From positions 1,710,001-1,742,000 of the forward strand of contig NZ_CP179200.1 of the NCBI RefSeq assembly GCF_051201565.1: a stretch of DNA of 32,000 bases, in the 5' to 3' direction. The position numbers and the translations under genes are program-made. The notes under the pieces are model-generated. The model worked only from the letters and a program-made list of their open reading frames with translations. It made no database searches and was not told where the DNA came from. Of the stretch, positions 161-20,279 are shown piece after piece (position 1 is the stretch's first letter; every line of letters starts with the position of its first letter). This DNA is from Pseudothioglobus sp. nBUS_23. GTDB lineage: Bacteria > Pseudomonadota > Gammaproteobacteria > PS1 > Pseudothioglobaceae.

Positions 161-1390
161 TTAGAGATAACCTTTTTCTTTAGCAGCAGTTGTGTAAGCT
201 GCTTCTAAGTCAGCCAGTGCTTGACTAGCTGTTTCTTTTCCTTGCATGAAATCAACAAGCTCCTTACCTGCTGCTGAATGCATTAGACCAGCATATGGCA
301 ACATTGGATATGGAGTTGTTCCCATTGCAGCTGCAGCAAATACACCCTTGGCAGCATCTGTTGGCTGATAACCATCAATTAGCCAAACCGCTAACGGAGA
401 AGTTTCATCGTTTAGCATTTCAGGACGAATTGCATGCATCATAGCCATAAAGGTAGCTTCTGCATCTGCATCCGAAATGTTCTTAGAAACAGTGAATCCA
501 TCCCACCATAGTGTTGAAGCAGGAGTTGAGCCACCGCCTACTGTCATTGGACCTGCAATATCAGTATTATTTGCAACTGTTGGATCTACTTCATCACTCT
601 TAAGTGGTCCAACGCGAGAGCCCCACATATTCATAAGCGCAACATTACCTGCTTTCCATTCAGCACTCGTTGCATTTGAGTCGTGAGTCAAGAAGTCTGG
701 GTTCATGTAATCTGATAACGCTCTCATCATGTGAAGTGCATCTTCACCATGTTGATTGTTAACTGCAATCTCAGCAGAACCAGGCTTAAAGAACTCACCG
801 CCCTGACCAATGTACATATTGACAAATTCTTCAGCTAAGTTCCAACCAGCAGCATAAGCACCTCCGACTGGATGCTCCATCATTCCACTTGCACGTATAT
901 TCGCAGCAGCAACTAACATCTCTTCATAAGTTGTTGGCGGCGCAATACCTAACTGATCTAAGACATCTGCTCTGAAAACTAAATGCTGAGCGTTTGCCAT
1001 GAAGGCAATACCCATAATCTTTCCATCAACAGTGATTAGCTGGCTCTTCTTTAGGCCTTGACCATGCTTAGCAACTAGATCATCAAGCGGTCTAATCACA
1101 TCATTATTCATTAGTGCAACAATCGATGAGTTTGCAACAATCGCTGTTGTAAATTCAGCTGGATTACCTTGCATACCTGGCACATTAATTTTTTGGTGAT
1201 CAGCAGTTAAGTTTTTCTCAACTGTAACACCTCCACCAGCACATTCCATAGCGCCTGCACCAACAGTTTGGATCGCTGGGAACTCATTTCCAACAATGCT
1301 TACACGGCCATCGGATGCTCCACATCCTGCCCAGGCACTAGAAGCTAATGTTGTTAACGCTACAACTGTAGCAATTTTTCTTAAAAACAT
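161..1390 (-). CDS. ABC transporter periplasmic solute-binding protein, family 1 (sugar/polyol-type, CUT1-like)
   Basis: The ORF track starts at TTG 1414. ATG 1390 is the likelier start because AGGAGAG lies 5 nt upstream. This gives MFLRKIATVVALTTLASSAWAGC, a signal peptide with an AWA/G or lipobox-like AGC site. Length of about 409 aa and overall composition fit family-1 SBPs. A permease lies downstream and a MalK-like ATPase sits at the operon head. Confidence 0.85.
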   Translation of the reverse strand: MFLRKIATVVALTTLASSAWAGCGASDGRVSIVGNEFPAIQTVGAGAMECAGGGVTVEKNLTADHQKINVPGMQGNPAEFTTAIVANSSIVALMNNDVIRPLDDLVAKHGQGLKKSQLITVDGKIMGIAFMANAQHLVFRADVLDQLGIAPPTTYEEMLVAAANIRASGMMEHPVGGAYAAGWNLAEEFVNMYIGQGGEFFKPGSAEIAVNNQHGEDALHMMRALSDYMNPDFLTHDSNATSAEWKAGNVALMNMWGSRVGPLKSDEVDPTVANNTDIAGPMTVGGGSTPASTLWWDGFTVSKNISDADAEATFMAMMHAIRPEMLNDETSPLAVWLIDGYQPTDAAKGVFAAAAMGTTPYPMLPYAGLMHSAAGKELVDFMQGKETASQALADLEAAYTTAAKEKGYL

Positions 1391-1459: not shown

Positions 1460-1473
1460 TGCATACGATTGCA
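1460..1473. promoter_or_regulatory. Putative LacI-family operator O1-A (TGCATACGATTGCA)
   Basis: A 14-bp pseudo-palindrome of the form TGCA-nn-CG-nn-TGCA with a central CG at 1466-1467. An identical copy lies at 11877-11890. On the minus strand it sits 4 nt downstream of an extended -10. Confidence 0.55.
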
Positions 1474-1477
1474 ATGA

Positions 1478-1486
1478 ATTATAACA
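1478..1486 (-). promoter_or_regulatory. Extended -10 promoter element (TGTTATAAT) for the SBP-permease transcript
   Basis: The minus strand reads TGTTATAAT, matching TGnTATAAT. It lies about 88 nt upstream of ATG 1390. The same arrangement recurs at 11895-11903. Confidence 0.5.
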
Positions 1487-1513
1487 CAGTCTATATTAAT
1501 ATATAAATAATTT

Positions 1514-1527
1514 TGCATTCGTATTCA
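1514..1527. promoter_or_regulatory. Putative auxiliary LacI-family operator O2-A (TGCATTCGTATTCA)
   Basis: A degenerate copy of the O1 motif with a central CG at 1520-1521. Its centre is 54 bp from the O1-A centre, the same spacing seen in the second intergenic region. Confidence 0.45.
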
Positions 1528-1595: not shown

Positions 1596-2576
1596 CTACT
1601 TTTGCCATTTTGGCAACGGGTCATAGCCGAGCTGCAACAATACATGTGGAACATCGACAAATACCCAATTTTCAACTAAGAGCTCATTTTCACGACGCCA
1701 CCAATCACAAACACGCATAAAAACTCGCTCGTTGGTTGGGCCTTGACCTAGGAATGGTTTAACGTTAACACCGGTCAATGATGGCCAGCCTCCTGAGCAG
1801 GTGTAATTGCCCTCGCCAAATCTTGTGAAGTGTTTTGTAAAGCCATTATTTTTTGTTCCACCTGACCACCCTTCAAACTGGGATTCAAACGGCACTTGAA
1901 ATGAAGCAAACTCCTCAACGCCAATAAAAGAACCGAATGCACCTGGTCCATACCACATCATATTCTTATGCCAATAAGGACGCCAGGCCTCATTCTTAGT
2001 CGCTAATTTATTGAGCATATCGGTAACAATTTGATAGCTTTGCTGCCCCTCAGCAGGGTCTAGAGAATTTATTAGGACGCCATCTCGTGACGCGGGGCCC
2101 TGAATCAGACCGGTGTATCCTCGGGAATACCCTGGACCCATATCCAAAGGCCATTGATTGCAGGCAATCATCAGTTCTGGAATATCTAGATAAATATAGC
2201 TTTCTACAGCTTGTTCATTCTCGATACGGTGGAATTCACCATAGCGCAGATAACTCAGACTTTTTGTCGATTTAATGCCGATCCAATCATTTTCGAATTG
2301 ACCAACATAATACCCGGTTGAGCTGATCCAATTTTGTCCCTCAAATTCTCCTGCCATGAAGATATCATCACGCCTATAGAGTCCTTCGAATGAATGTTGG
2401 AGCGGCAGGAGAAATTCATTAAGGTATATTTCTGCACCTTTGAGCTGATTAAACGGATGGACAACATTAATGTCAGCATCCTCACCAAAAAAAATCGCAA
2501 TGTTGGAAGAGAAGTCTCCCGGATGGCTCAATGCCGCTGCATATTTCAAATAGAATGAACGGTCATATATCGACAT
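1596..2576 (-). CDS. Tandem NTF2/SnoaL-like domain protein, function unknown
   Basis: ATG start with AGGAAAA 5 nt upstream. The C-terminal segment RVCDWWRRENELLVENWVFVDVPHVLLQLGYDP matches the SnoaL ester-cyclase C-terminal signature also seen in the 161-aa protein ([16 protein letters not shown]). The N-terminal half ends in an analogous ESYIYLDIPELMIACNQWP, which suggests two NTF2-like domains. Confidence 0.55.
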   Translation of the reverse strand: MSIYDRSFYLKYAAALSHPGDFSSNIAIFFGEDADINVVHPFNQLKGAEIYLNEFLLPLQHSFEGLYRRDDIFMAGEFEGQNWISSTGYYVGQFENDWIGIKSTKSLSYLRYGEFHRIENEQAVESYIYLDIPELMIACNQWPLDMGPGYSRGYTGLIQGPASRDGVLINSLDPAEGQQSYQIVTDMLNKLATKNEAWRPYWHKNMMWYGPGAFGSFIGVEEFASFQVPFESQFEGWSGGTKNNGFTKHFTRFGEGNYTCSGGWPSLTGVNVKPFLGQGPTNERVFMRVCDWWRRENELLVENWVFVDVPHVLLQLGYDPLPKWQK

Positions 2577-2634
2577 AATTTTTCCTATTAAAATAAATAA
2601 ACTTTATGGTAACTCAATGATCTATAGAATAAAA

Positions 2635-3342
2635 CTAGGTACGGGATTTTTCAAAATCTTCCCATGCTCTTTTAAAATCATCAAAACTAAATTCTGTTTT
2701 TTCTGCAGGGTCTAATATGAGCCTTTCAGAAGCAAACAGCTTATGAATTGAATCTTTCAAAATAGGTATTACTTCATTCGGAACTAGAACTGCTCCATGA
2801 CGATCTGCATGGATTAAGTTGCCTGGATTCACCGTCATTCCAAAGACATTTACAGGGGTATCTATCTCGCGGACATGCACAAAACCATGGCTAGGGCCTA
2901 TTGAACCAGCGACTACCGGAAAGCCTTCTGCAAGATCACCTAAATCTCTCATTACTCCATTGGTTAGAGCTCCTGAAAGTCCAAACCCCTTGTGTACTTT
3001 AGTATTAATTTCTCCCCAATAAGCTCCGATACAGTCTGGAAAATCAAGATCCTCAATAACTACAACTGTTGGTCCATTTATTTCAGACATATAGCGATAG
3101 TAATTCATTCTTCGCTCTTTAATAATTTCTGGGTTTTCTTTCGGTGGTTCTATTGCTGCAATCTTTGCAGTTTTAGCAAAACCAACCATAGCTCCACCGT
3201 CTGCATCAGAACAAAGCATCGTTCCTCTAGTAAATTGGGAAAAGCCCCGTTTGCCTTGAGCAACCTCAATCGCATTACAGACAGTTGGTGTATCGACCGA
3301 CTGAAGCAGTTTTAGTAAATCTGAATCTATCTCATCAGCCAT
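2635..3342 (-). CDS. RraA-like protein (4-hydroxy-4-methyl-2-oxoglutarate aldolase / oxaloacetate decarboxylase family)
   Basis: It carries a family-like pattern: TPTVCNAIE near the N-terminus, GALTNGVMRD, and GNLIHADRHGAVLVP near the C-terminus. GGAGG lies about 10 nt upstream of the ATG. The start overlaps the 3' end of the upstream hydrolase gene by 16 nt. Confidence 0.7.
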   Translation of the reverse strand: MADEIDSDLLKLLQSVDTPTVCNAIEVAQGKRGFSQFTRGTMLCSDADGGAMVGFAKTAKIAAIEPPKENPEIIKERRMNYYRYMSEINGPTVVVIEDLDFPDCIGAYWGEINTKVHKGFGLSGALTNGVMRDLGDLAEGFPVVAGSIGPSHGFVHVREIDTPVNVFGMTVNPGNLIHADRHGAVLVPNEVIPILKDSIHKLFASERLILDPAEKTEFSFDDFKRAWEDFEKSRT

Positions 3343-4019
3343 TCTTTTATTACCTCCGTTGTTTCTCTGGGTTGCTCCAATGTAGGCATATGGCCCGCAT
3401 TATTTATTATTTTTAAATCTGAATCAGTAATCATATTATGCATCATCTCATGCCTTTCCACAGGACATAATTTATCCTCCGAGCCACACAGAATCAATAC
3501 AGGGATTTTAATTGATTGAATAGTATCCTGTTGATCTAACCTTGATTGAAGGGCTCTTGATTGATTAATAAAAACATCTGGCCCTAGGGTCAACGCCATA
3601 TCCATACAAACATTTAGAACGCTCCTTTTGTTTTCACTTTCGGCAAGATAATTTGGTTTCATTTCATCTCGCATCACTTCGAGAAGCTTGCCCTGATTAA
3701 CCTCTCTTATCTGGGGTTCTCGCTTTAATTTAACTTCGTCTAGTTCAGCCTTAGGATTTGTATCCATAAGTATGAGTTTCTCAATCCGATTAGGTGCTTG
3801 AGAATATATTTCCATAGCAACAATGCCGCCCATTGAATGCCCTAAGAGTGAAAAATTTTTTGGAGCCTTTTTTAACACATCTGAGGCCAACTCCCTGACT
3901 GATGAAAAATTCGAAATATCTGCAATAGTTACTTCAAGGTTCTGACTCAGTGCTTCTATTTGTGGGGAAAAGATTCTTTCATCACACATCATTCCCGGAA
4001 CCATAACTAGACTTTTCAC
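3327..4019 (-). CDS. Alpha/beta-fold hydrolase
   Basis: It has the nucleophile elbow GHSMGG and later GSEDKLCP and NAGHMPTLEQP, which fit a Ser-Asp-His triad. The GTG start at 4019 lies 1 nt after the upstream TAG (translational coupling). An alternative ATG lies 5 codons in. Confidence 0.8.
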   Translation of the reverse strand: MKSLVMVPGMMCDERIFSPQIEALSQNLEVTIADISNFSSVRELASDVLKKAPKNFSLLGHSMGGIVAMEIYSQAPNRIEKLILMDTNPKAELDEVKLKREPQIREVNQGKLLEVMRDEMKPNYLAESENKRSVLNVCMDMALTLGPDVFINQSRALQSRLDQQDTIQSIKIPVLILCGSEDKLCPVERHEMMHNMITDSDLKIINNAGHMPTLEQPRETTEVIKEWLMR

Positions 4020-4021
4020 AA

Positions 4022-5149
4022 CTAATTACTTGCAATTAAAGCGCCCTCAGATAGTGACTTCAGCTTAGCAAATGCAATATCAGGATCTACAGCTCCAAAT
4101 CCTGCAAAGGTTCCAAAGCCACAGTCAGAGCCCGCTATAACTCTTTCCTTGCCGACAATGTTGACAAATTTATTGATCCTCTCAGCGACTAGCTCTGGGT
4201 GTTCAATAAAGTTAGTTGTCGTATCAACAACTCCAGGAACCAGTATTTTGTCATCTGGTATCTCTTTCTTTCGATCACGAAAGACTGTCCATTCATGAGC
4301 ATGTCTTGGATTTGAGGTCTCGAATAATGTGTATTGAGCATCCGCTTTCATTAAAGTTCCAAACACCTTATTCATGTCAATATCACAGACATGTGGGCCC
4401 TCATAGTTTCCCCAGCAAATATGAATTCTTACTTTTTCAGATGGGACATTTTTTAGAGCATGATTTAAAGCCTCCATATGCGACTCTGCGATCTTTATGA
4501 ACTCCGAATCCGATAGATCACTAAATAGCATATGTCTCGAAAGAGCCAGGTCCGGACAATCAAGTTGCAAGTCTAATCCTGAAGCGACAATCGTTTCATA
4601 TTCTTCTCTCATAGCATCTGCAAGTGCTGCAAGGTAGGCATCTCTAGTTGCATAAAAATCATTCTGCAGAAATAAAGAAATGACACCCGGTGAGGCTGCA
4701 TTCATAAAACCCCTCTCAACTCCATGAGCTTTCATTGCATTTTTTAAATTGGCGATATCTTTTTGAAGCTCTCCCTGACCCTTGGATTTTACTTCTCCAG
4801 TGCACATTGGCCTAGCATATTGTGGCGTACCTCCCTCATCTGCAAGTCTTTGAAGAAATCCTGGAAAAAGCTTTAAATCTTCTGGTGCATTTCTTGGGCT
4901 ATCTCCCGAAAAACCGGTATATCTATCTTTGACATAAGTAGCATATGAAATTTTGGAGGTTTCGCCATCACTAACAATGTCAATTCCAGAGTTTTTTTGT
5001 TTTTCAACTGTACTCAAAACGTTTCTTTGCATACATTCATCAAAGCTATTTTGATCATATTTTTTATTATTTTCTCTAGCGAAAATAAAGTCGACCACCC
5101 CCTGACTTCTTGGCAGTGAGCCGACATGACTGGTTAAAATTTTATTCAA
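4022..5149 (-). CDS. Core-MetE-like protein (cobalamin-independent methionine synthase C-terminal / URO-D-CIMS-like Zn fold)
   Basis: The N-terminus TSHVGSLPRS is typical of the Meth_synt_2 family. Putative Zn ligands are the His-x-Cys in RIHICWGNY, the Glu in LFETSNP and the Cys in AGSDCGFG. The TTG start is supported by AAGGAG 6 nt upstream. At 375 aa this is the single-barrel core form. Confidence 0.7.
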   Translation of the reverse strand: MNKILTSHVGSLPRSQGVVDFIFARENNKKYDQNSFDECMQRNVLSTVEKQKNSGIDIVSDGETSKISYATYVKDRYTGFSGDSPRNAPEDLKLFPGFLQRLADEGGTPQYARPMCTGEVKSKGQGELQKDIANLKNAMKAHGVERGFMNAASPGVISLFLQNDFYATRDAYLAALADAMREEYETIVASGLDLQLDCPDLALSRHMLFSDLSDSEFIKIAESHMEALNHALKNVPSEKVRIHICWGNYEGPHVCDIDMNKVFGTLMKADAQYTLFETSNPRHAHEWTVFRDRKKEIPDDKILVPGVVDTTTNFIEHPELVAERINKFVNIVGKERVIAGSDCGFGTFAGFGAVDPDIAFAKLKSLSEGALIASN

Positions 5150-5171
5150 ATCAATCTCCTTAAAATAAATA

Positions 5172-6137
5172 CTACATTCTCCATGTTGGCCCTGCTATAT
5201 CATTAGTCTTAGTCACCCGAAAAAGACTGGCATCATTTGAGTTTAATGGAACCATTCTATAAGTTAGGTTTGGCGTTATGAGGCATGTGTCCCCCTCTGA
5301 CAATTCTGAACTACCACCTTCATACTCTAAAGACCAGCTACCCTTTGAAATCATATTAACTTGATACTGGTCTGGAAAATCAAACTCATCAATAAACGAA
5401 TTATTTGTAATAAAGTCAACTTCAAAACCGGGTCTATCTTTTAATATTCCGTTTTTACCTATGACATTGACTGAGCCTTTTTTTGAGCTTTCAAAGAGAT
5501 CTGCTGCACTAACAAAAAAATTTTCTTGAAATTCTTCGGTTGTAACGATAGGAAAATCTTTTAGCTCGTCTTCACTTAAAAGAGGCATTGGATTAACATG
5601 GCTTGGTAGCGACTCTCCTTTTTTAGTGTCATAAAGCAACCCATTTTCACCCAATATCAAACCATATTCTTTGGCATTATTGATGACTTCTGGAGCCCAT
5701 GTCACTCCGCCTCCCGCATCATCACCTCCGAGAACTGCCATTAACATTCCATAGGAATTACCAATATTTTTAAATGCTCTAAAAACACCAGTAGGTATAT
5801 TAACCAAGTCTCCTTCATTCGCAATCACTTCACCATCTTTTCCATCACGGCCCCAAAAGAAACGCCACCTTCCTTTAAGGACATAAAAAACTTCTGCTGT
5901 AGTGTGAGAGTGTAATGAATTAGTACAGCCTGGTGGCTGACCAGCTGCACCAATATTAAAGCCAGGAGTCTCCTTAATATGAACATGTTGATCAGGGCTT
6001 TCAGAAACCCCAGAACCAATAATTGTAAAATTTTCTTTTTGATTTGAGCCAGGCGTATGGGCATCAATAAATGCCGTCTTACATGGCTTTAAATCAGCAT
6101 ATCTCACAATAAATTTTTCCATCTCTTTCGAGGTCAT
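5172..6137 (-). CDS. Bicupin protein (one metal-site cupin plus one degenerate cupin)
   Basis: The N-terminal domain carries cupin motif 1, GCTNSLHSHTTAEVFYVLKG (HxHxxxE), and motif 2-like GDLVNIPTGVFRAFKN. The C-terminal half (GSWSLEYEGGSSELSEGDTCLITP) has cupin-like spacing but no His ligands. Confidence 0.7.
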   Translation of the reverse strand: MTSKEMEKFIVRYADLKPCKTAFIDAHTPGSNQKENFTIIGSGVSESPDQHVHIKETPGFNIGAAGQPPGCTNSLHSHTTAEVFYVLKGRWRFFWGRDGKDGEVIANEGDLVNIPTGVFRAFKNIGNSYGMLMAVLGGDDAGGGVTWAPEVINNAKEYGLILGENGLLYDTKKGESLPSHVNPMPLLSEDELKDFPIVTTEEFQENFFVSAADLFESSKKGSVNVIGKNGILKDRPGFEVDFITNNSFIDEFDFPDQYQVNMISKGSWSLEYEGGSSELSEGDTCLITPNLTYRMVPLNSNDASLFRVTKTNDIAGPTWRM

Positions 6138-6140
6138 AAA

Positions 6141-7109
6141 TTAGCCTGTTTTGATTATTATTTGCTTCCATAAAGCTGTTTCATCGAACAGAGTGTATTC
6201 CCTTCTTAATCCCCACGGTCCAAACTCTGCATGGGTAACTCCCATAACATATAAATCAGCCCCTGTAGGTTCACCAAAAACCCCCCATCCATCATGCTTA
6301 CCTTTGAGATTCCATCGAACCGCGGCTCTTGGAGAAAGCTGTTCATCTTCGCGTCCGATTTGATGCTCTACTGTAAATTTTGCACTTGGCATTGAGGAGC
6401 GAAGACCCATCCAAAACTCTTCTGCATGATTATATGAATGACCACTGACGCCTCCTGGATATTCAAGATGACAGCCCCGGTCATATTGAGACCTAAAGAC
6501 TGAGGAATCTGAATTCATAATACGCTCCAATATGTCAACGAATCTCTCTCCCCATTCATTTTGGTTACCTTTTCCAGTGTATGGTCCAGCCAAATCCATC
6601 GAATCATTGAATGGATGCTGGCATTGCTGAACACCCCCCTCCTGATCTATCTGATTTCTAGCAAAATCCTGCGGAGTCATGCCTAGCTGTCTAACAATAG
6701 CTCCTTGGTCTCTTATTAGCCACTCATCATTTACCTGGTTGTTGATTGCATGACAATCTGCAATGGTCCTGAATACAACTTTTTTACCAGTTGCATTTCC
6801 AAATGAGCCATCTCCGAGATGGGAGGCTGTTGAAATAATTCGATGAGAAGACAACATCCCTTTCTCTGGACTGCCTGACCAAATTACATCTTCTCCTAAA
6901 AGCTTACGATCAGGAAACTCAAATAATGTTGCCTTGGTGGCATCGATAACTGTGTTATTGCCAATCACCAGAGAGGGTGGCGCTCTTAAAATAATATCAT
7001 CTGAATATAGATACAGAAGTTTATCAATACCTCTCTCTTCCCAAATTTCATGAGTTATGCCATTAATCCAATCTGGAAAATTTGCATACTTTGAATCGAA
7101 CCCTTCCAT
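6141..7109 (-). CDS. Tandem NTF2/SnoaL-like domain protein, function unknown
   Basis: ATG start with AGGAGA 7 nt upstream. The first domain ends DEWLIRDQGAIVRQLGMTP, a SnoaL-type signature. The second half (VRWNLKGKHDGWGVFGEPTG...REYTLFDETALWKQI) looks like a second NTF2-like fold. Confidence 0.6.
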   Translation of the reverse strand: MEGFDSKYANFPDWINGITHEIWEERGIDKLLYLYSDDIILRAPPSLVIGNNTVIDATKATLFEFPDRKLLGEDVIWSGSPEKGMLSSHRIISTASHLGDGSFGNATGKKVVFRTIADCHAINNQVNDEWLIRDQGAIVRQLGMTPQDFARNQIDQEGGVQQCQHPFNDSMDLAGPYTGKGNQNEWGERFVDILERIMNSDSSVFRSQYDRGCHLEYPGGVSGHSYNHAEEFWMGLRSSMPSAKFTVEHQIGREDEQLSPRAAVRWNLKGKHDGWGVFGEPTGADLYVMGVTHAEFGPWGLRREYTLFDETALWKQIIIKTG

Positions 7110-7119
7110 TAATTATCTC

Positions 7120-8132
7120 CTATTTTTCAGACATTCTTGCAGACCCTCTGACCATGAGTGGGCCATCAATTTCAATTCTTCTTGCGGTTGTAGTCTTGTT
7201 CTCAATACTTTCAATTAATATTGAAACGGTTTCTGCTACCATTCGATTTGCAGGTTGACGAACAGTTGTTAGGTCGTAGGCTGGCCATGATGAAATGGGG
7301 ACATCATCATATCCAACAACAGAGACCTGCTCGGGGACTTTTAGTCCAAGCTCAAACCTAATTACATCTATCACTGCAATGGCCATTGCATCATTAGCAA
7401 TGAAAACTGCATCTGGATAATCTTTTTTGGTAAACATTTTTCTTGCAGCTTGTCTAGCTTCATCTGTATTAAAGTTGCCAACTTCGCGAGCATAGAGCTC
7501 TTGTCCATTTCTGGCTAGCTCATTTACGAATCCTTTTTCTCGATCTCGTTGCGTAGAAGCTCCTTCCCAACCCGCAATATATCCAATTTTCTTATGGCCC
7601 CCAGCCATAAGAAATCGTGCAACTTTCTGACCACCAAGCTCATTATCAGATGTGACTGCAGAGAACCTTTCATCATCTTGAGATCTATTAAATAGGACAA
7701 CAGGGACTCCAGCTGATCCACATCTTTTTGCCAAGTCAGAGGACATAGAAACAGATGCAGCAATAATTCCATCAACTTGATAGTCTAATATTTCATCAAC
7801 TGCATCCTCAATATCATCCTCAGTATTTCCAGCCATAAATATAAGAACGTGATATCCTTTCTTTTGAAGAGCACTGGATAGAAGCTCTAATGCCTCTGGA
7901 TAAAAATAATTATCAAGATAGGCCACAACAAGCCCAATAATTCTTGACTTTCCTGTTATCAATGAACGAGCAAGAACATTTGGCCTATAGCCAAGCTTTG
8001 CTGCCGCCTTACGAACTAATTCGTCTGTTTTTTTAGAAGATGACGCTCCAGGGTAAACACGCGAGAAACAGCAGACTGGCTAACACCGGCTAATTTAGCG
8101 ACCTCCAATGATGTAACTTTTTTATTTTCCAT
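7120..8132 (-). pseudogene. LacI-family transcriptional regulator, disrupted by a 1-nt frameshift between the HTH and effector domains
   Basis: ATG 8132-8130 overlaps the SDR stop as TAATG. It encodes MENKKVTSLEVAKLAGVSQSAVSRV, a LacI-type HTH, then reads on out of frame and terminates at TAG 8018-8016. A second frame, closed upstream by TAG 8082-8080, reads RVYPGASSSKKTDELVRKAAAKLGYRPNVLARSLITGKSRIIGLVV. That frame runs straight into the 280-aa effector-domain ORF (7120-7962). Confidence 0.75.
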
Positions 8133-8899
8133 TAGTCTGCAGTCCATCCTCCGTCTATCATCAAAGCAGAGCCAGTGATCATGCTAGATGCATCTGACGC
8201 AAGAAAGACCACTGCTCCCATCACATCCTCAACCTCTCCAACTCGACCTAGTTTAATCTTGTCTTCTATCCATTTTTTGCGATCCGGATTGTCAAATGTA
8301 GACTGTGTTAAGGGCGTTCGAATAAATGTTGGACAAATGGTATTCACTCTAATTTGATGCCTCCCCCACTCAATAGCCATTGCCTTTGTAAACCCCTCGA
8401 CAGCATGTTTTGAGGCCGCGTATACTGCTCGATCAACCCCGCCAACATGGCCCATTTGAGAAGATATATTAATCAACGATCCAGGCTTTTTTGCTTTAAT
8501 TAAAGCTTTTGCAATAGACTGTGTAAGGAAGTATGCTCCCTTAAGATTTACATCCATTACCGCCTCAAAATCTTCGGCGGATGTTTCTAACGAGGGAGTA
8601 TGTCGACCCAAGCCAGCACTATTAACCAAAACATCAAAAGGCTTTTGTTCTTTTAAAACAGTATCAATTGAGACTAAATCTGAGATATCAATCTGTAAAG
8701 TCTCTGCACTGAATCCTTTCATGATAATTGCCTCAGCTGCTTCACTTAAAGCTTTAATATTTCTTGAGGCTAAGACAACATCAGCTCCGGCCTCAGCCAG
8801 AGCAACTGCACATCCTAAGCCAATTCCTGATGAAGCGCCAGTTACTAACGCCCTAAGGCCATCCAGTCTTAATGAAGGCGTCTTAGGTAAATCAATCAT
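8132..8899 (-). CDS. Classical short-chain dehydrogenase/reductase (FabG-like)
   Basis: It has TGASSGIGLG (TGxxxGxG), NSAG and the catalytic YAASK (YxxxK). AAGGAG lies 9 nt upstream of the ATG. Confidence 0.9.
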   Translation of the reverse strand: MIDLPKTPSLRLDGLRALVTGASSGIGLGCAVALAEAGADVVLASRNIKALSEAAEAIIMKGFSAETLQIDISDLVSIDTVLKEQKPFDVLVNSAGLGRHTPSLETSAEDFEAVMDVNLKGAYFLTQSIAKALIKAKKPGSLINISSQMGHVGGVDRAVYAASKHAVEGFTKAMAIEWGRHQIRVNTICPTFIRTPLTQSTFDNPDRKKWIEDKIKLGRVGEVEDVMGAVVFLASDASSMITGSALMIDGGWTAD

Positions 8900-8953
8900 T
8901 TATTGCGCTCCTTGCTAACTACAAGGGCTTTATTGGTTGAGTGCAAACTAGAC

Positions 8954-10264
8954 TTATTGAGCAGCTTTACCATAGGGCACATCTTCACCACCATAACGCC
9001 TAACTCTTATGTTGGCCTGCTCTGCATGACCCACAAAAGACTCAAGCATACAGAGTCTTGAGCAGTATCTGCCAATCTTGACAGCTGCTTCATCCGTTGT
9101 AATTTTTTGGTAGCTATGTGTTTTAAGATACTTACCAACCCATAGACCGCCAGTGTAGCGCCCCGCTTTTTTTGTAGGAAGCGTATGGTTAGTTCCAATC
9201 ACCTTATCACCATTTGATACGTTAGTTCTTGGTCCTAAAAATAATGCACCATAAGAGTGCATATTTTCCAGGAACCAGTCATCTCGATCAGTCATTACTT
9301 GAACATGCTCAGAGGCAATCTCATTGGCAACCTCAAGCATTTCATCGTAGGTGTCACAAACAACAACCTCACCATACTCCTCCCAACTAACGCCAGCAGT
9401 ATCGGCTGTAGGAAGAATGGTGAGTATTCTATCAATTTCATTAAGAGTCTCATCTGCAAGATTTTGACTATTGGTTACAAGGACCGCTGGCGAGTTATAG
9501 CCATGCTCAGCCTGACCAAGAAGATCAGTTGCGCACAATTCAGCATCTACTGTCTCATCTGCAATCACCATAGTCTCTGTTGGACCAGCAAAAAGATCAA
9601 TTCCAACTCGTCCGAAGAGTTGTCTTTTAGCTTCAGCCACATATGCATTACCTGGACCGACCAGCATATCGACTGGGGCAATCGTTTCAGTGCCTAAGGC
9701 CATAGCACCAACAGCTTGAATGCCACCAATGACATAAATCTCATGAGCTCCACCAAGATGCATTGCAGCAATGACCGCTGCATTAGGCTGACCTTGATAG
9801 GGCGGAGTGCAAGCTACAATTCTAGGAACCTTTGCAACACTAGCTGTAACTACTGACATGTGTGCAGAGGCAACCATTGGGAACTTCCCTGCTGGCACAT
9901 AACAGCCTACTGACTGAACAGGAATATTTTTGTGTCCAAGAATAACTCCTGGCATTGTTTCAACTTCAATATCTTGCATCGAGTCTCTTTGAGCTTGTGC
10001 AAAGTTCCTCACTTGTTCTTGAGCAAACTTAATGTCTTTCATGTCTCTATCAGACACATTTGAAATAAGATTATCAATCTCAGCTGAGCTTAGTTTGTAT
10101 GATTTTGGTGAATAATTATCAAACTTTTCTGAGAACTCTCTAACAGCAGCATCACCTTTTTCTTCAATGACTTTTAAAGTATTTTTGACTACCTCACTTA
10201 CCTGAGCATCGTCGATTGCTTTATCTTCAGCAGTTTTTCCTTTTTTTAAATAATATATTGCCAT
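8954..10264 (-). CDS. Histidinol-dehydrogenase-family NAD-dependent alcohol-to-acid dehydrogenase (HisD paralog in a catabolic context)
   Basis: HisD signature residues are kept: GQAEHG (Zn Gln/His), ASEHVQV (catalytic Glu-His) and GTNHTLPT. Length is 436 aa. No other his genes are nearby. Confidence 0.8.
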
Positions 10265-10275
10265 AGTAATTCCAA

Positions 10276-10761
10276 TTAATTAGGTTTGGGTGGTTCGGCC
10301 TCACCCCGATCAAAAGCCTCCCAACCCTGGCCATTAAAAACATCAACTCCAAGTTGGGCAAGAATACTTGGGAAATCTACATTGACCCAATTATCAACAA
10401 TGAGGCCATCTCTAACTTCCCAAAAATCTGTGTAATGAATTTTCACGCGCTTATTTGTAGGTTTAATGCCCATGAATTCTCCACTATGAACAGCATCGAT
10501 GTGCCCAAAACAAGAAGCCCATTCACCATCCACAAGAAACTTGTCTGTTTTATAGATTCTATCTGTAAAAGCTGCTCTTAAAGGGAGCTGCCAGTTGTTT
10601 CGAAACTCTTCAAGATTATTTTTTGTTCCACATCCTTGATTGCCCATCCATCGAAAATCTTTATGAAAATGCTTATCCATACTATTTGAATTAGCCCCTA
10701 AAGCCTCTTCCATTGCCTTGATTACTGCAAGGGTTTTTTGGGATTTTTCATCATAACTCAT
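10276..10761 (-). CDS. SnoaL-like ester cyclase / NTF2-fold protein (single domain)
   Basis: 161 aa. The C-terminal [26 protein letters not shown] is the typical SnoaL-family signature. Confidence 0.75.
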
Positions 10762-10774
10762 AATATCTCTCTAA

Positions 10775-11827
10775 CTAGCTGTCTAGCATTTGTCCAGTTT
10801 CACTATCAAACAATAAGCATAAATTTGCAGAAATATTAGCCATAACCTTTGAACCTATATCAACGTGATAGTTTTTGTCAGACTTAATTGAAATCAATTC
10901 TCCTCCAGATTTGATGGATACCATTGTCATATCTCCAAGAAGCTCCATTGAAAATGCTGGAGCAGAAATAGCACCTTTTGACTTAACAATAACTGCATCC
11001 TCTGCTCTAAAACCAAGAGTCACATTGCCCTTGTGTTTTTTACTCAAACCATCAATCTTTACGCCTTCACACGTGAAAACACCATCCTTAATTGAGCCTT
11101 TCAATAGATTCATAGCTGGCGACCCAATAAAGCTTGCAACGAAACTATTGGCGGGTTTGTTGTATATTTCTTGAGGTGTTCCAACTTGCTGAACGATTCC
11201 AGCATTCATTACAACAACTCTGTCTGCCAAAGTCATTGCCTCTACCTGATCATGTGTCACATAAATAGTGGTAACTTTTAAACTGTGCTGTAAATTTTTT
11301 ATTTGTGCACGAGTAGAAACACGTAATTTAGCATCGAGATTTGATAATGGCTCATCCATCAAAAAAACTGTTGGCTCTCTTACAATTGCTCTTGCTAGTG
11401 CAACTCTTTGCCTTTGCCCTCCAGAGAGTTCTGCTGGTTTTCTGTGAAGAAAATCATTCAGTTCAACCATTTCAGAGGCCCTCATCACTTTCTCATCATG
11501 GAGAGATTTATCAATTTTTCTAACCTTTAAAGGAAAACGAATATTTTCATAAACTGTCATGTTGGGGTATAACGCATAAGATTGAAATACCATGGCAACA
11601 TCTCGGTCTTTTGGTTCAAGAGAGTTAACCACTTTTCCATCAATTAAAACCTCACCACTTGTAACATTCTCAAGGCCAGCAATCATTCTCATTGTCGTTG
11701 TCTTGCCACAACCTGAAGGCCCTAACAAAACTAAAAACTCTTCGTCAGGTATAGTAAGGTTAAAGTTATCTACACCGACAAAATTACCCCATCGTTTTGT
11801 AAGATTTTTTAATTCAATTTCTGCCAT
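10775..11827 (-). CDS. ABC transporter ATP-binding protein, MalK/UgpC/MsmK type
   Basis: It has Walker A GPSGCGKTT, the signature LSGGQRQRVALARA, Walker B FLMDEPLSNLD, an H-loop in TTIYVTHD, and a C-terminal MalK-like regulatory/TOBE region. Confidence 0.95.
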   Translation of the reverse strand: MAEIELKNLTKRWGNFVGVDNFNLTIPDEEFLVLLGPSGCGKTTTMRMIAGLENVTSGEVLIDGKVVNSLEPKDRDVAMVFQSYALYPNMTVYENIRFPLKVRKIDKSLHDEKVMRASEMVELNDFLHRKPAELSGGQRQRVALARAIVREPTVFLMDEPLSNLDAKLRVSTRAQIKNLQHSLKVTTIYVTHDQVEAMTLADRVVVMNAGIVQQVGTPQEIYNKPANSFVASFIGSPAMNLLKGSIKDGVFTCEGVKIDGLSKKHKGNVTLGFRAEDAVIVKSKGAISAPAFSMELLGDMTMVSIKSGGELISIKSDKNYHVDIGSKVMANISANLCLLFDSETGQMLDS

Positions 11828-11876: not shown

Positions 11877-11890
11877 TGCATACGATTGCA
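11877..11890. promoter_or_regulatory. Putative LacI-family operator O1-B (TGCATACGATTGCA)
   Basis: An exact copy of the 1460-1473 motif; the identity extends to 15 nt. On the minus strand it sits 4 nt downstream of an extended -10. It lies in the divergent gap between the ABC ATPase and BKACE genes. Confidence 0.55.
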
Positions 11891-11894
11891 AAAT

Positions 11895-11903
11895 ATTATA
11901 GCA
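11895..11903 (-). promoter_or_regulatory. Extended -10 promoter element (TGCTATAAT) for the ATPase-led operon
   Basis: The minus strand reads TGCTATAAT, about 68 nt upstream of ATG 11827. Its register relative to the operator is the same as at 1478-1486. Confidence 0.5.
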
Positions 11904-11930
11904 CAAGGTTTTTTCTTTTAAAGGTAATGT

Positions 11931-11944
11931 TGCAATCCTATGCA
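11931..11944. promoter_or_regulatory. Putative auxiliary LacI-family operator O2-B (TGCAATCCTATGCA)
   Basis: It has one mismatch to the reverse complement of O1 (central CC instead of CG). Its centre is 54 bp from the O1-B centre and 79 nt upstream of the BKACE ATG. Confidence 0.45.
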
Positions 11945-19076: not shown

Positions 19077-20279
19077 CTAAAATTCAATCCCTTCAACCTC
19101 AGCAATCGTTTGCATATCCTTGTCGCCTCTGCCAGAGAGATTAATGATAATTGATTTATCACTAGACCATTCTTTTGCTAATTTCACTGCATAAGCAATA
19201 GCATGCGATGGCTCTAGTGCTGGAATAATTCCCTCTACCTCAGTTAAAAGATGAAATGCCTCAAGAGCCTCCTTATCAGTAATAGCAACATACTCCGCTC
19301 TGCCAATATCTTTTAGATAAGCATGCTCAGGTCCAACTCCAGGGTAGTCAAGACCTGCTGAAATAGAATGGCCCTCAATTATTTGGCCACTTTCATTTTC
19401 CATGAGGTAAGTTCTATTTCCATGCAGAACACCAACACTTCCAGCTGTTAGCGGCGCAGCATGTGCATCAGGCCCGAGATCGATACCTCGTCCTCCAGCT
19501 TCAACACCAATAATTCTGACCGAAGTATCCTCAATGAAAGGGTGGAAAAGCCCAATTGCATTTGAGCCTCCTCCAACACAAGCAATTATGGCATCAGGAA
19601 GACCTCCGACTTGTTTATCAAATTGCTCTTTGGCCTCTTTACCGATGACGCTTTGGAAGTCCCTTACGAGCATTGGATAGGGATGAGGGCCTGCTACAGT
19701 GCCAATAATATAATAGGTGTCATCGATGTTAGTCACCCAGTCTCGCATTGCCTCATTTAAAGCATCTTTAAGTGTTTTTGAGCCAGATGATACTGGGACT
19801 ACAGTTGCGCCGAGAAGCTTCATTCGATAAACATTCTGTACCTGTCTGACTACGTCAACCTCTCCCATATAGACCACGCACTCAAGCCCTAATCTGGCAG
19901 CAATAGTGGCCGACGCAACACCATGTTGGCCAGCGCCTGTTTCTGCGATGATACGAGTTTTACCCATTCTCTTAGCGAGCAAAGCTTGGCCAATTGTGTT
20001 ATTGACTTTGTGCGCGCCAGTATGATTCAGGTCTTCACGTTTTAAATATATTTTTGCTCCACCAATCTTCTTTGTTAGGTTTTCAGCATAGTAAAGTGGC
20101 GTCTCTCTGCCTACATAATGCTTAAGATCATACTCAAACTCCTTTAGAAAATCTGGATCATCTTTGTATTTTTCATAGGCTTCATTTAACTCAGTTACTG
20201 CCGACATAAGAGTTTCTGCAACAAAAATGCCACCATATTGATCAAAATGACCGTGCTCATCTGGAAGGTTATAACTCAT
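19077..20279 (-). CDS. trpB: Tryptophan synthase beta chain
   Basis: It has [17 protein letters not shown] and the PLP-lysine motif HTGAHKVNN, plus GGGSNAIG. The ATG overlaps the trpF TGA as ATGA. Confidence 0.97.

Follow-up and report, generated by a model that had tools for sequence, protein, structure and literature searches.

A 15-mer, TGCATACGATTGCAA, occurs on the plus strand of the 32-kb stretch of DNA analysed here (the window) at positions 1460–1474 and again, as an exact repeat, at positions 11877–11891. The question raised by this repeat is whether it marks a regulatory element shared by two promoters and, if so, which protein would bind there and in what arrangement, or whether it is a coincidence. 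The initial annotation had taken it as part of a duplicated promoter module with two LacI/GalR-type operators 54 bp apart, and the sequences and coordinates on which that proposal was built are correct.

Layout of the two copies

Read on the minus strand, copy A consists of the extended −10 element TGTTATAAT (1486–1478), the tetranucleotide TCAT and the 14-mer TGCAATCGTATGCA (1473–1460). Copy B has the same arrangement, with TGCTATAAT (11903–11895) followed by ATTT and by the same 14-mer as in copy A (11890–11877). This 14-mer is the predicted main operator, O1. A partner site, O2, is found further upstream in each case: at 1514–1527 in copy A (TGCATTCGTATTCA, one mismatch to the consensus TGCAnnCGnnTGCA) and at 11931–11944 in copy B (TGCAATCCTATGCA, in which the central CG has become CC/GG). 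The centre-to-centre distance between the partner and the main site is exactly 54 bp in copy A and copy B alike. The operator is a central-CG palindrome, tttTGCAnnCGnnTGCAaaa, and the elements of the module are ordered O2, −35 position, −10, 4 nt, O1, with O2 immediately upstream of the −35 position. The predicted elements are as follows.

1460–1473, minus strand: O1 of copy A, main operator TGCAATCGTATGCA, 4 nt past the −10 element; identical in all Thioglobus relatives
1478–1486, minus strand: extended −10 element of copy A, TGTTATAAT, within the conserved TGTGnTATAAT block
1502–1507, minus strand: weak −35-like hexamer of copy A, TTTATA, from the promoter scan; unconserved in the window's clade
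1514–1527, minus strand: O2 of copy A, auxiliary operator TGAATACGAATGCA, centre 54 bp upstream of that of O1, at about −49.5
11877–11890, minus strand: O1 of copy B, main operator TGCAATCGTATGCA, 4 nt past the −10 element of the ATPase operon promoter
11895–11903, minus strand: extended −10 element of copy B, TGCTATAAT, from the promoter scan and the alignment of relatives
11931–11944, minus strand: O2 of copy B, auxiliary operator TGCATAGGATTGCA, centre 54 bp upstream of that of O1; central CG changed to GG in the window's clade; 78 bp from the divergent BKACE start codon

Because the −10 hexamer of copy A ends at 1478, transcription is predicted to start at about 1470–1472, inside O1. Relative to this predicted start, O1 would span roughly −2 to +12 and the centre of O2 would lie at about −49.5. 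Copies A (1460–1527) and B (11877–11944) appear to be two versions of one regulatory module. To call the module duplicated, as the initial annotation had done, is plausible, but outside the functional blocks the spacers of A and B are no more alike than background.

Genes adjoining the two copies

Copy A is located in a 181-bp gap ahead of the gene for a solute-binding protein (SBP) and is without any divergent gene. Copy B is located ahead of an ATPase gene, with a BKACE gene and a carnitine-dehydrogenase-like gene running divergently from it. The three gene features that the argument needs are listed here.

161–1390, minus strand: SBP gene, predicted to be driven by copy A; likely start codon ATG at 1390, preceded by the ribosome-binding site GGAGAG (1414 as the limit of the mechanical ORF)
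1596–11827, minus strand: operon predicted to be driven by copy B, from ORFs and family matches; tightly packed, with an order largely conserved in 80 loci
7120–8132, minus strand: gene of the LacI-family regulator, within the copy-B operon and disrupted by the loss of 1 nt

The genes of the copy-B operon encode, in order, a MalK-type ABC ATPase, a SnoaL-like protein, a HisD-like dehydrogenase, an SDR, the LacI-family regulator, a double SnoaL-like protein, a bicupin, a MetE-like protein, an alpha/beta hydrolase, an RraA-like protein and a 326-residue SnoaL-like protein. A scan found no terminator-like site between this operon and copy A. The SBP has no Pfam or NCBIfam match; it shows weak similarity to CUT1-type sugar-binding proteins, the best PDB match being SmoF (E = 1e-6).

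As to the pathway and the effector, the Pfam and NCBIfam matches of the cluster proteins are to generic families only, and the PDB likewise gives only a generic match for the MetE-like protein. The enzymes under the predicted control of the module (SnoaL-like, HisD-like, MetE-like, bicupin and RraA-like) make up no recognizable sugar pathway. None of the enzymes of the cluster is mentioned in the supplement of a study of LacI-family regulons (Ravcheev et al., 2014; PMC4052901), and literature searches, with RegPrecise outside their scope, returned no published description of the motif strings, the gene combination or the cluster.

Strength of the signal within the window

By itself, the identity of the two 15-mers is at chance level and is not significant. 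About 0.96 exact direct 15-mer pairs are expected per 32 kb and three independent repeats of at least 15 nt are present, in agreement with the order-of-one estimate that accompanied the original proposal. Matches to TGCAnnCGnnTGCA with at most one mismatch number five in the window, compared with 1.02 expected, a count that was reached by two of 100 shuffles. The promoter scan of the minus strand recovered both TG-extended TATAAT promoters, and the AT-rich spacers of the window would be expected to yield −10/−35 matches as good as these by chance. Because the within-window matches are no better than chance, support for the −10 and −35 elements has to come from conservation. Judged from the sequences, the significance within the window is weak and the conservation among relatives is overwhelming; a chance origin of the whole module is ruled out by this conservation.

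Two further candidates were considered and rejected. A third site at 19101–19114 (AGCAATCGTTTGCA, one mismatch) lies in the conserved 3′ coding end of a TrpB-like gene, at a GRGDKD motif, and is taken as a chance match; it has neither a partner nor a −10 element in register, and about one such match is expected by chance. A role as an RNA hairpin was set aside since O2 sits upstream of the promoter and the stem of the palindrome is just 4 bp.

Conservation of the module among relatives

Species-representative genomes were scanned with the repaired regulator sequence (described below), which gave 80 loci, and 10-kb flanks were examined. Regulator orthologues were found in Candidatus Thioglobus and other SUP05-group genomes (78–98% identity) and in many Rhodobacteraceae, some Rhizobiaceae and other Alphaproteobacteria (63–71% identity), and the gene order of the locus is largely conserved among these relatives. 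The window accordingly belongs to a relative of Candidatus Thioglobus (SUP05 group). The whole locus appears to have been transferred between bacterial classes, because orthologous loci with conserved gene order are present both in the Thioglobus/SUP05 group and in Alphaproteobacteria. The alphaproteobacterial loci have the genes for the ATPase, the binding protein and the enzymes in a single unit, behind one upstream region. The Thioglobus loci have the binding-protein gene at the far end of the operon, with an upstream region of its own, which is copy A.

Of the orthologous loci, 60 extend 200 nt or more upstream of the ATPase orthologue, and in 51 of these the gene is preceded by two matches to TGCAnnCGnnTGCA at a distance of 50–58 bp; six more loci have a single exact site. 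The GC content of the loci ranges from 39% (Thioglobus) to 68% (Rhodobacteraceae). The second copy is present in all of the Thioglobus loci that reach the binding-protein gene with the exception of L006, which has a single exact site only, ahead of a divergent SBP homologue.

A motif scattered at random, inside genes as well as between them, would have spoken against the initial annotation; the sites are distributed quite differently. The 1.37 Mb of fetched loci contain 115 exact-consensus sites, compared with 1.35 expected from base composition (an approximately 85-fold excess). Pairs of the kind described above account for 103 of the 115, at least nine of the other 12 adjoin the same transporter genes or the regulator, and at most three of the exact sites lie inside coding sequence.

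Metagenome contigs were scanned for TGCATACGnnTGCA-N(25–55)-TGCAnnCGTATGCA, a pattern that permits spacings of 39–69 bp and is independent of the regulator. The scan returned at least 122 modules in at least 120 stretches, nearly all of those listed adjoining ATPase or SBP orthologues. The spacings among the matches listed are 54 bp (47 modules), 55 bp (43), 56 bp (8), 53 bp (4) and 52 bp (2), with 18 others. The 54-bp distance proposed for the window is therefore not peculiar to it: a distance of about 54 bp is conserved in the pooled set of at least 148 unique modules from Gamma- and Alphaproteobacteria, those listed including 74 with 54 bp and 51 with 55 bp. Among the modules listed, those with an extended −10 element number 39 at 54 bp and three at 53 bp, and those with a −35 element (CTTG 8 nt past O2) number 34 at 54 bp and 49 at 55 bp. 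The position of O1 at 4 nt past the TG-extended −10 element, noted originally for the window, is kept in all 39 of the listed unique Thioglobus-type modules with 54-bp spacing.

Anatomy of the module

The composition of the operators was counted over 48 unique sites each for O1 and O2. O2 reads TGCA-T-A-CG-(T/A)(A/T)-TGCA followed by an A-run, and O1 reads TGCA-(A/t)-N-CG-T-A-TGCA with a T-run before it and a shorter A-run after it. The full site is a palindrome of about 20 bp, in which the TGCAnnCGnnTGCA core is extended to ttt...aaa. The central C and G are found in 44–48 of the 48 unique sites for both O1 and O2, the exception being O2 of copy B in the window, with GG, and an A-tract directly follows O2 in 39–46 of the 48. 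The promoter-distal half-sites are strict (TGCATAC) and the promoter-proximal halves are relaxed, and the two operators together form a module with dyad symmetry about the promoter. The even palindrome with its central CG, and a LacI-family regulator gene in the operon that the motif is predicted to control, support the earlier assignment of the sites as LacI/GalR-type operators.

The alphaproteobacterial modules have CTTGCC or CTTGCA 8 nt past O2 together with a weak −10 element. The offset between O2 and the −35 element is constant whether the total spacing is 54 or 55 bp, with the 1-bp variation falling between the −35 element and O1. In Thioglobus, TGTGnTATAAT ends 4 nt before O1; it is invariant in 13 aligned modules and is carried by at least 42 unique modules. 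Copy B of Thioglobus is without a conserved −35 element, and the blocks conserved in Thioglobus are O2, TGTGnTATAAT and O1 only. Copy A of the deeper Thioglobus lineages (L009, L012, L013 and L014) has CTTGCA at the −35 position.

In the alignment of the 13 Thioglobus modules, the pairwise identity is 0.98 for O1, 0.94 for TGTGnTATAAT and 0.88 for O2, compared with 0.49 for the remaining spacer and 0.47–0.48 for the flanks. One column of the spacer is gapped in this alignment; for the flanks the figures are six of 30 and 13 of 50 columns. Both O2 sites of the window's clade depart from the consensus, copy A having TGA for TGC and copy B having GG for the central CG. The O2 consensus is perfect in copy A of L009, L012, L013 and L014, and in copy B of these lineages and of L066.

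The LacI-family regulator

The regulator gene is intact in the relatives and frameshifted in the window, where the helix-turn-helix is encoded in one frame (8132–8016) and the core in another (7962–7120). In an alignment with six relatives the window lacks one nucleotide of the Thr27 codon (ACTCCT to AC-CCT), at about 8052/8053 and just past the recognition helix. The same deletion is present in the Logan assembly of run SRR31779810, which may be the source read set of the window itself.

The 7120–7962 frame matches the Pfam families Peripla_BP_1, Peripla_BP_3 and Peripla_BP_4. When repaired, the regulator has 337 residues, with full-length matches to the RbsR, PurR, CytR and CcpA models and with matches to LacI-family chains in the PDB, and it is predicted to be a full-length LacI/GalR-family protein of the LacI/PurR/CcpA type. 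No match was found to the tetramerization tail or helix of LacI; a phmmer comparison with the Escherichia coli LacI chains covers query residues 4–308 only.

The recognition helix AGVSQSAVSRVFTPGAS is at least 95% invariant across the 80 orthologues. This constancy of the helix parallels that of the motif, which is kept over a GC range of 39% to 68%. Other loci recovered in the metagenome scan have two or three copies of TGCATACGTATGCA ahead of a HisD homologue, with spacings of 39, 46, 49 and 61 bp. Each such locus adjoins a LacI-family gene, the core of which is 26–41% identical and the VSQSxVSRVF helix of which is kept. Because these paralogues with divergent cores keep both the helix and the motif, the motif tracks the DNA-binding domain rather than the target genes, which would be the expected behaviour of a true operator.

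Proposed mode of action

The explanation that we favour is that each module is a sigma-70 promoter placed between two operators of a LacI-family repressor. We put at roughly 0.85–0.9 the probability that O1 and O2 are operators of the repressor encoded in the copy-B operon and that they lie at real promoters, and it is likely that this identity of operators and promoter goes together with repression at O1. Without inducer, a repressor dimer on O1 would block RNA polymerase at the start site and a second dimer on O2 would strengthen the repression. Most likely the two dimers would cooperate, bound to one face of the helix with the 40-bp core promoter between them; an additional or alternative effect of the O2 dimer would be to block upstream contacts of the polymerase. 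The repressor would close both promoters and would control its own gene (local autoregulation), and a small molecule, taken up through the ABC transporter that it regulates or made from the transported substrate, would release it. O2 must matter for the same promoter, because its consensus is perfect even behind a co-directional gene.

Cooperative action of O1 and O2 has, in our estimate, about even odds. The spacing is 54 bp in 39 of the 42 unique modules listed from Thioglobus, in which the copy-B −35 region is no more alike than background, and it is 54–55 bp in 125 of the 148 listed unique modules, or about five turns at 10.5–11 bp each; other modules have 52, 53, 56 or 57 bp, and promoter anchoring could explain part of the constancy. 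LacI loops form down to roughly 58 bp in vivo. Looping, with which the initial annotation had found the spacing in copy A compatible, would be compatible with the data as far as the spacing of about 54 bp is concerned, but the regulator has no match to the tetramerization tail of LacI that the lac-type mechanism uses. A more far-reaching version, which we offer tentatively and consider unlikely to be right in full, is that two dimers of a LacI-family repressor lacking the tetramerization helix enclose the 40-bp core promoter in an obligate dyad-symmetric cage or micro-loop, that the 54–55 bp spacing is itself selected, and that the assembly is a switch controlling a marine-metabolite catabolic pathway common to roseobacters and SUP05-group heterotrophs. 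If this were true, the spacing would have survived both the horizontal transfer between Alpha- and Gammaproteobacteria and the swap from a −35-dependent to an extended −10 promoter, and the geometry of the assembly would be what keeps the outer half-sites strict and leaves the inner ones relaxed.

Alternative explanations

The closest alternative accepts both sites as LacI-type operators and takes them to act independently: O1 would occlude the start site and O2 would keep the alpha-CTD of the polymerase off the A-rich stretch between O2 and the −35 element, with the spacing a by-product of promoter anchoring. We regard this as possible but doubtful. The alphaproteobacterial CTTG is fixed at 8 nt past O2 at a total spacing of either 54 or 55 bp, the gap between the −10 element and O1 is constant at 4 nt and the A-tract past O2 is present in 39–46 of the 48 unique sites, all of which speaks for independent action; the lack of a match to the tetramerization tail points the same way, and cooperative looping is further disfavoured by a spacing of 54–55 bp that falls outside the usual LacI-family intersite peaks of 13, 22 and 32 bp (Ravcheev et al., 2014; PMC4052901). 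Anchoring is harder to reconcile with copy B of Thioglobus, where the −35 region is unconserved (0.49) and yet 39 of the 42 listed modules keep 54 bp with almost no indels. The dyad symmetry, with strict outer and relaxed inner half-sites, is also a better fit to a symmetric assembly of two dimers. A different role for O2, as the operator of a divergent promoter that persists in Thioglobus as an inherited relic without a role at the ATPase and SBP promoters, seems to us improbable. In the alphaproteobacterial loci a divergent gene for a SnoaL-like protein (about 335 residues) does start some 15–75 bp from O2, where O2 may serve both directions, and both O2 sites are degenerate in the window's clade. 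Inspection by eye of the opposite strand of the alphaproteobacterial spacers gave no convincing divergent promoter, and O2 is perfect in copy A of L009, L012, L013 and L014, where the upstream gene is co-directional, and in copy B of L009, L012, L013 and L066, where a co-directional AraC-type gene ends about 35 nt away. The identity of O2 in Thioglobus (0.88, compared with 0.48 in the adjacent flank) argues in the same direction. One operator per divergent promoter is rejected as the sole explanation in view of these perfect O2 sites without a divergent gene.

The weak statistics within the window would fit a further possibility, that the palindromes are sites of another transcription factor, chance matches or structural repeats, unconnected with the LacI-family gene. 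We give it very little credence. The even palindrome with a central CG is itself a LacI-family signature (PMC4052901). The exact sites are enriched about 85-fold and occur almost only within the module, a LacI-family gene with the same recognition helix adjoins the motif even at unrelated loci, and an RNA hairpin cannot account for an O2 that is upstream of the promoter.

Comparison with known systems

With two operators around one promoter, as favoured here, the system would act as local LacI-family regulons classically do, through a main operator and an auxiliary one, and would be a standard repressor–operator system. A palindrome, a cognate regulator, a phylogenetic footprint and a motif that tracks the recognition residues, by which LacI/GalR operators are known, were all found here, as was a sigma-70 extended −10 element; the C-terminal tetramerization helix of lac-type looping was not.

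In the E. coli lac system, O1 and O3 are 92 bp apart and are bridged by a LacI tetramer held together by a C-terminal helix bundle. The present module resembles it in that the main operator lies at the start site and a weaker, auxiliary one ahead of the promoter, with an asymmetry of operator quality, and differs in its spacing of 54–55 bp, which is at the lower limit reported for LacI loops in vivo, and in a 337-residue protein that has no match to the tail. In the E. coli gal system, OE and OI (at −60.5 and +53.5, the latter inside galE) are about 113–114 bp apart, and looping by the GalR repressosome requires HU and supercoiling and proceeds through dimer–dimer contact without a LacI-type tetramerization domain. 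Here too, two operators of a LacI-family repressor flank the promoter; in contrast to gal, their centres are at about −49.5 and +5.5 and the gap between the sites is just 40 bp.

The LacI-family regulons surveyed by Ravcheev et al. (2014; PMC4052901) have even palindromes with a central CG, located 30–140 bp upstream of start codons; autoregulation is found in 72% and more than one site is present upstream of about 20% of the operons, with intersite peaks at 13, 22 and 32 bp. The present system shares with them the even central-CG palindrome, the distance of the sites from the start codon, the occurrence of more than one site per promoter and a regulator that is encoded together with the ABC transporter and the catabolic genes that it is predicted to control. 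It differs in that the pair is held at 54–55 bp and brackets the whole core promoter, and in that the enzymes belong to no recognizable sugar pathway. RafR and ScrR have obligate double operators 21–22 bp apart (PMC4052901). The likeness to these is a conserved and apparently obligatory operator pair for a LacI-family repressor at one promoter; the difference is that their pairs are about two helical turns apart, whereas here five turns span both promoter hexamers.

Implications for the cluster and for this genome

The cluster is widespread in marine Rhodobacteraceae and in SUP05-group Thioglobus, and the combined prediction of operators, promoters, regulator and targets is well supported and testable. 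Its main value would lie in the direct handles that the regulator and the binding protein offer on the substrate of the cluster and on a marine catabolic pathway, and in a clear case of operator geometry kept through horizontal transfer. As a natural experiment, the locus appears to have kept the spacing and asymmetry of its operators while the core promoter was rebuilt after horizontal transfer, and the module would lend itself to the question whether dimeric LacI-family repressors act cooperatively at short operator pairs that bracket a promoter. If the frameshift after residue 27 is real, both promoters are probably constitutively open in this genome, and the fully conserved O1 sites would then point to a recent event.

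Distribution and probable transfer of the locus

The regulator, transporter, enzymes and operator pair are common to the Rhodobacteraceae/Rhizobiaceae loci (L016-L080) and the Thioglobus loci (L001-L014 and L066), with protein identities of about 65-80% between the two groups. Because the whole locus is common to both at this level of identity, the sequence comparison implies that it passed horizontally between bacterial classes. After this putative transfer, the core promoter switched from a -35-dependent form (CTTGCC) to an extended -10 (TGTGnTATAAT), and the binding-protein gene was relocated to the operon end with a promoter-operator module of its own. The proteobacterial locus is also present in L015 (contig JBLHID010000073.1; binned as Polaribacter), where the regulator identity is 73% and the two operator sites are separated by 98 bp. 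The assignment to Polaribacter could be the result of mis-binning.

Differences from relatives in the regulator gene and beside copy B

About 8052/8053, minus strand: 1-base deletion in the LacI-family regulator gene (7120-8132), ACTCCT to AC-CCT in the Thr27 codon
11976-11998: 9-bp inverted repeat, TTGAATTTT-gaaat-AAAATTCAA, 25 bp ahead of the BKACE start codon

The deletion splits the reading frame of the regulator in the window directly past the recognition helix; the gene is intact in the six relatives compared with the window. The identical deletion is found in a Logan assembly of run SRR31779810.

In four Thioglobus loci, L009 (at about 5900-6190), L012, L013 and L066, an AraC-type regulator gene separates BKACE from the module, to the left of operator O2 of copy B. 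This gene of the deeper Thioglobus lineages is possibly a CdhR-like carnitine regulator. It is missing at this position in the clade of the window, in which BKACE and copy B are immediate divergent neighbours. The inverted repeat is found in L001 and L002 and is absent from L004, L005 and L010, and its conservation therefore extends no further than the closest relatives.

Candidate sister regulons and other occurrences of the operator motif

Sister-regulon candidates, among the matches listed (metagenome contig and positions):
L083, 561-710
L097, 6746-6805
L138, 8409-8562
L145, 8371-8423
L158, 1757-1831
L200, 6153-6306
L168, 6003-6071
L190, 2578-2646

These loci, in which paralogous LacI-family regulators adjoin HisD homologues, look like sister regulons. 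Their regulators have core identities of 26-41% with an unchanged VSQSxVSRVF helix, and each locus has two or three perfect TGCATACGTATGCA sites spaced by 39, 46, 49, 61 or 87-91 bp, or else by 54-55 bp. Short tandem-like arrays of three TGCATACGTATGCA copies were also found, among the matches listed, on metagenome contigs L102 (445-543), L146, L176 and L160 (2163-2267); LacI, ATPase and HisD homologues were sought near these arrays and none was detected.

19101-19114: AGCAATCGTTTGCA, one mismatch to the operator consensus

This match lies within the coding sequence of a TrpB-like gene, at its 3' end, with an MFS transporter gene 99 bp further on, and no partner site for it was found. About one such match is expected by chance in the window.

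Solute-binding protein and SnoaL-like genes

The solute-binding protein (161-1414) has no match in Pfam or NCBIfam. It is weakly similar to CUT1 sugar-binding proteins, the top match being the sulfoquinovosyl-glycerol binding protein SmoF (E = 1e-6). The enzyme set of the locus contains four SnoaL-like proteins.

1845-1861 and 10615-10631: exact 17-mer ATTATTTTTTGTTCCAC, in two SnoaL-like genes (326-aa and 161-aa ORFs)

The shared 17-mer is most likely a conserved coding segment of these paralogous genes.
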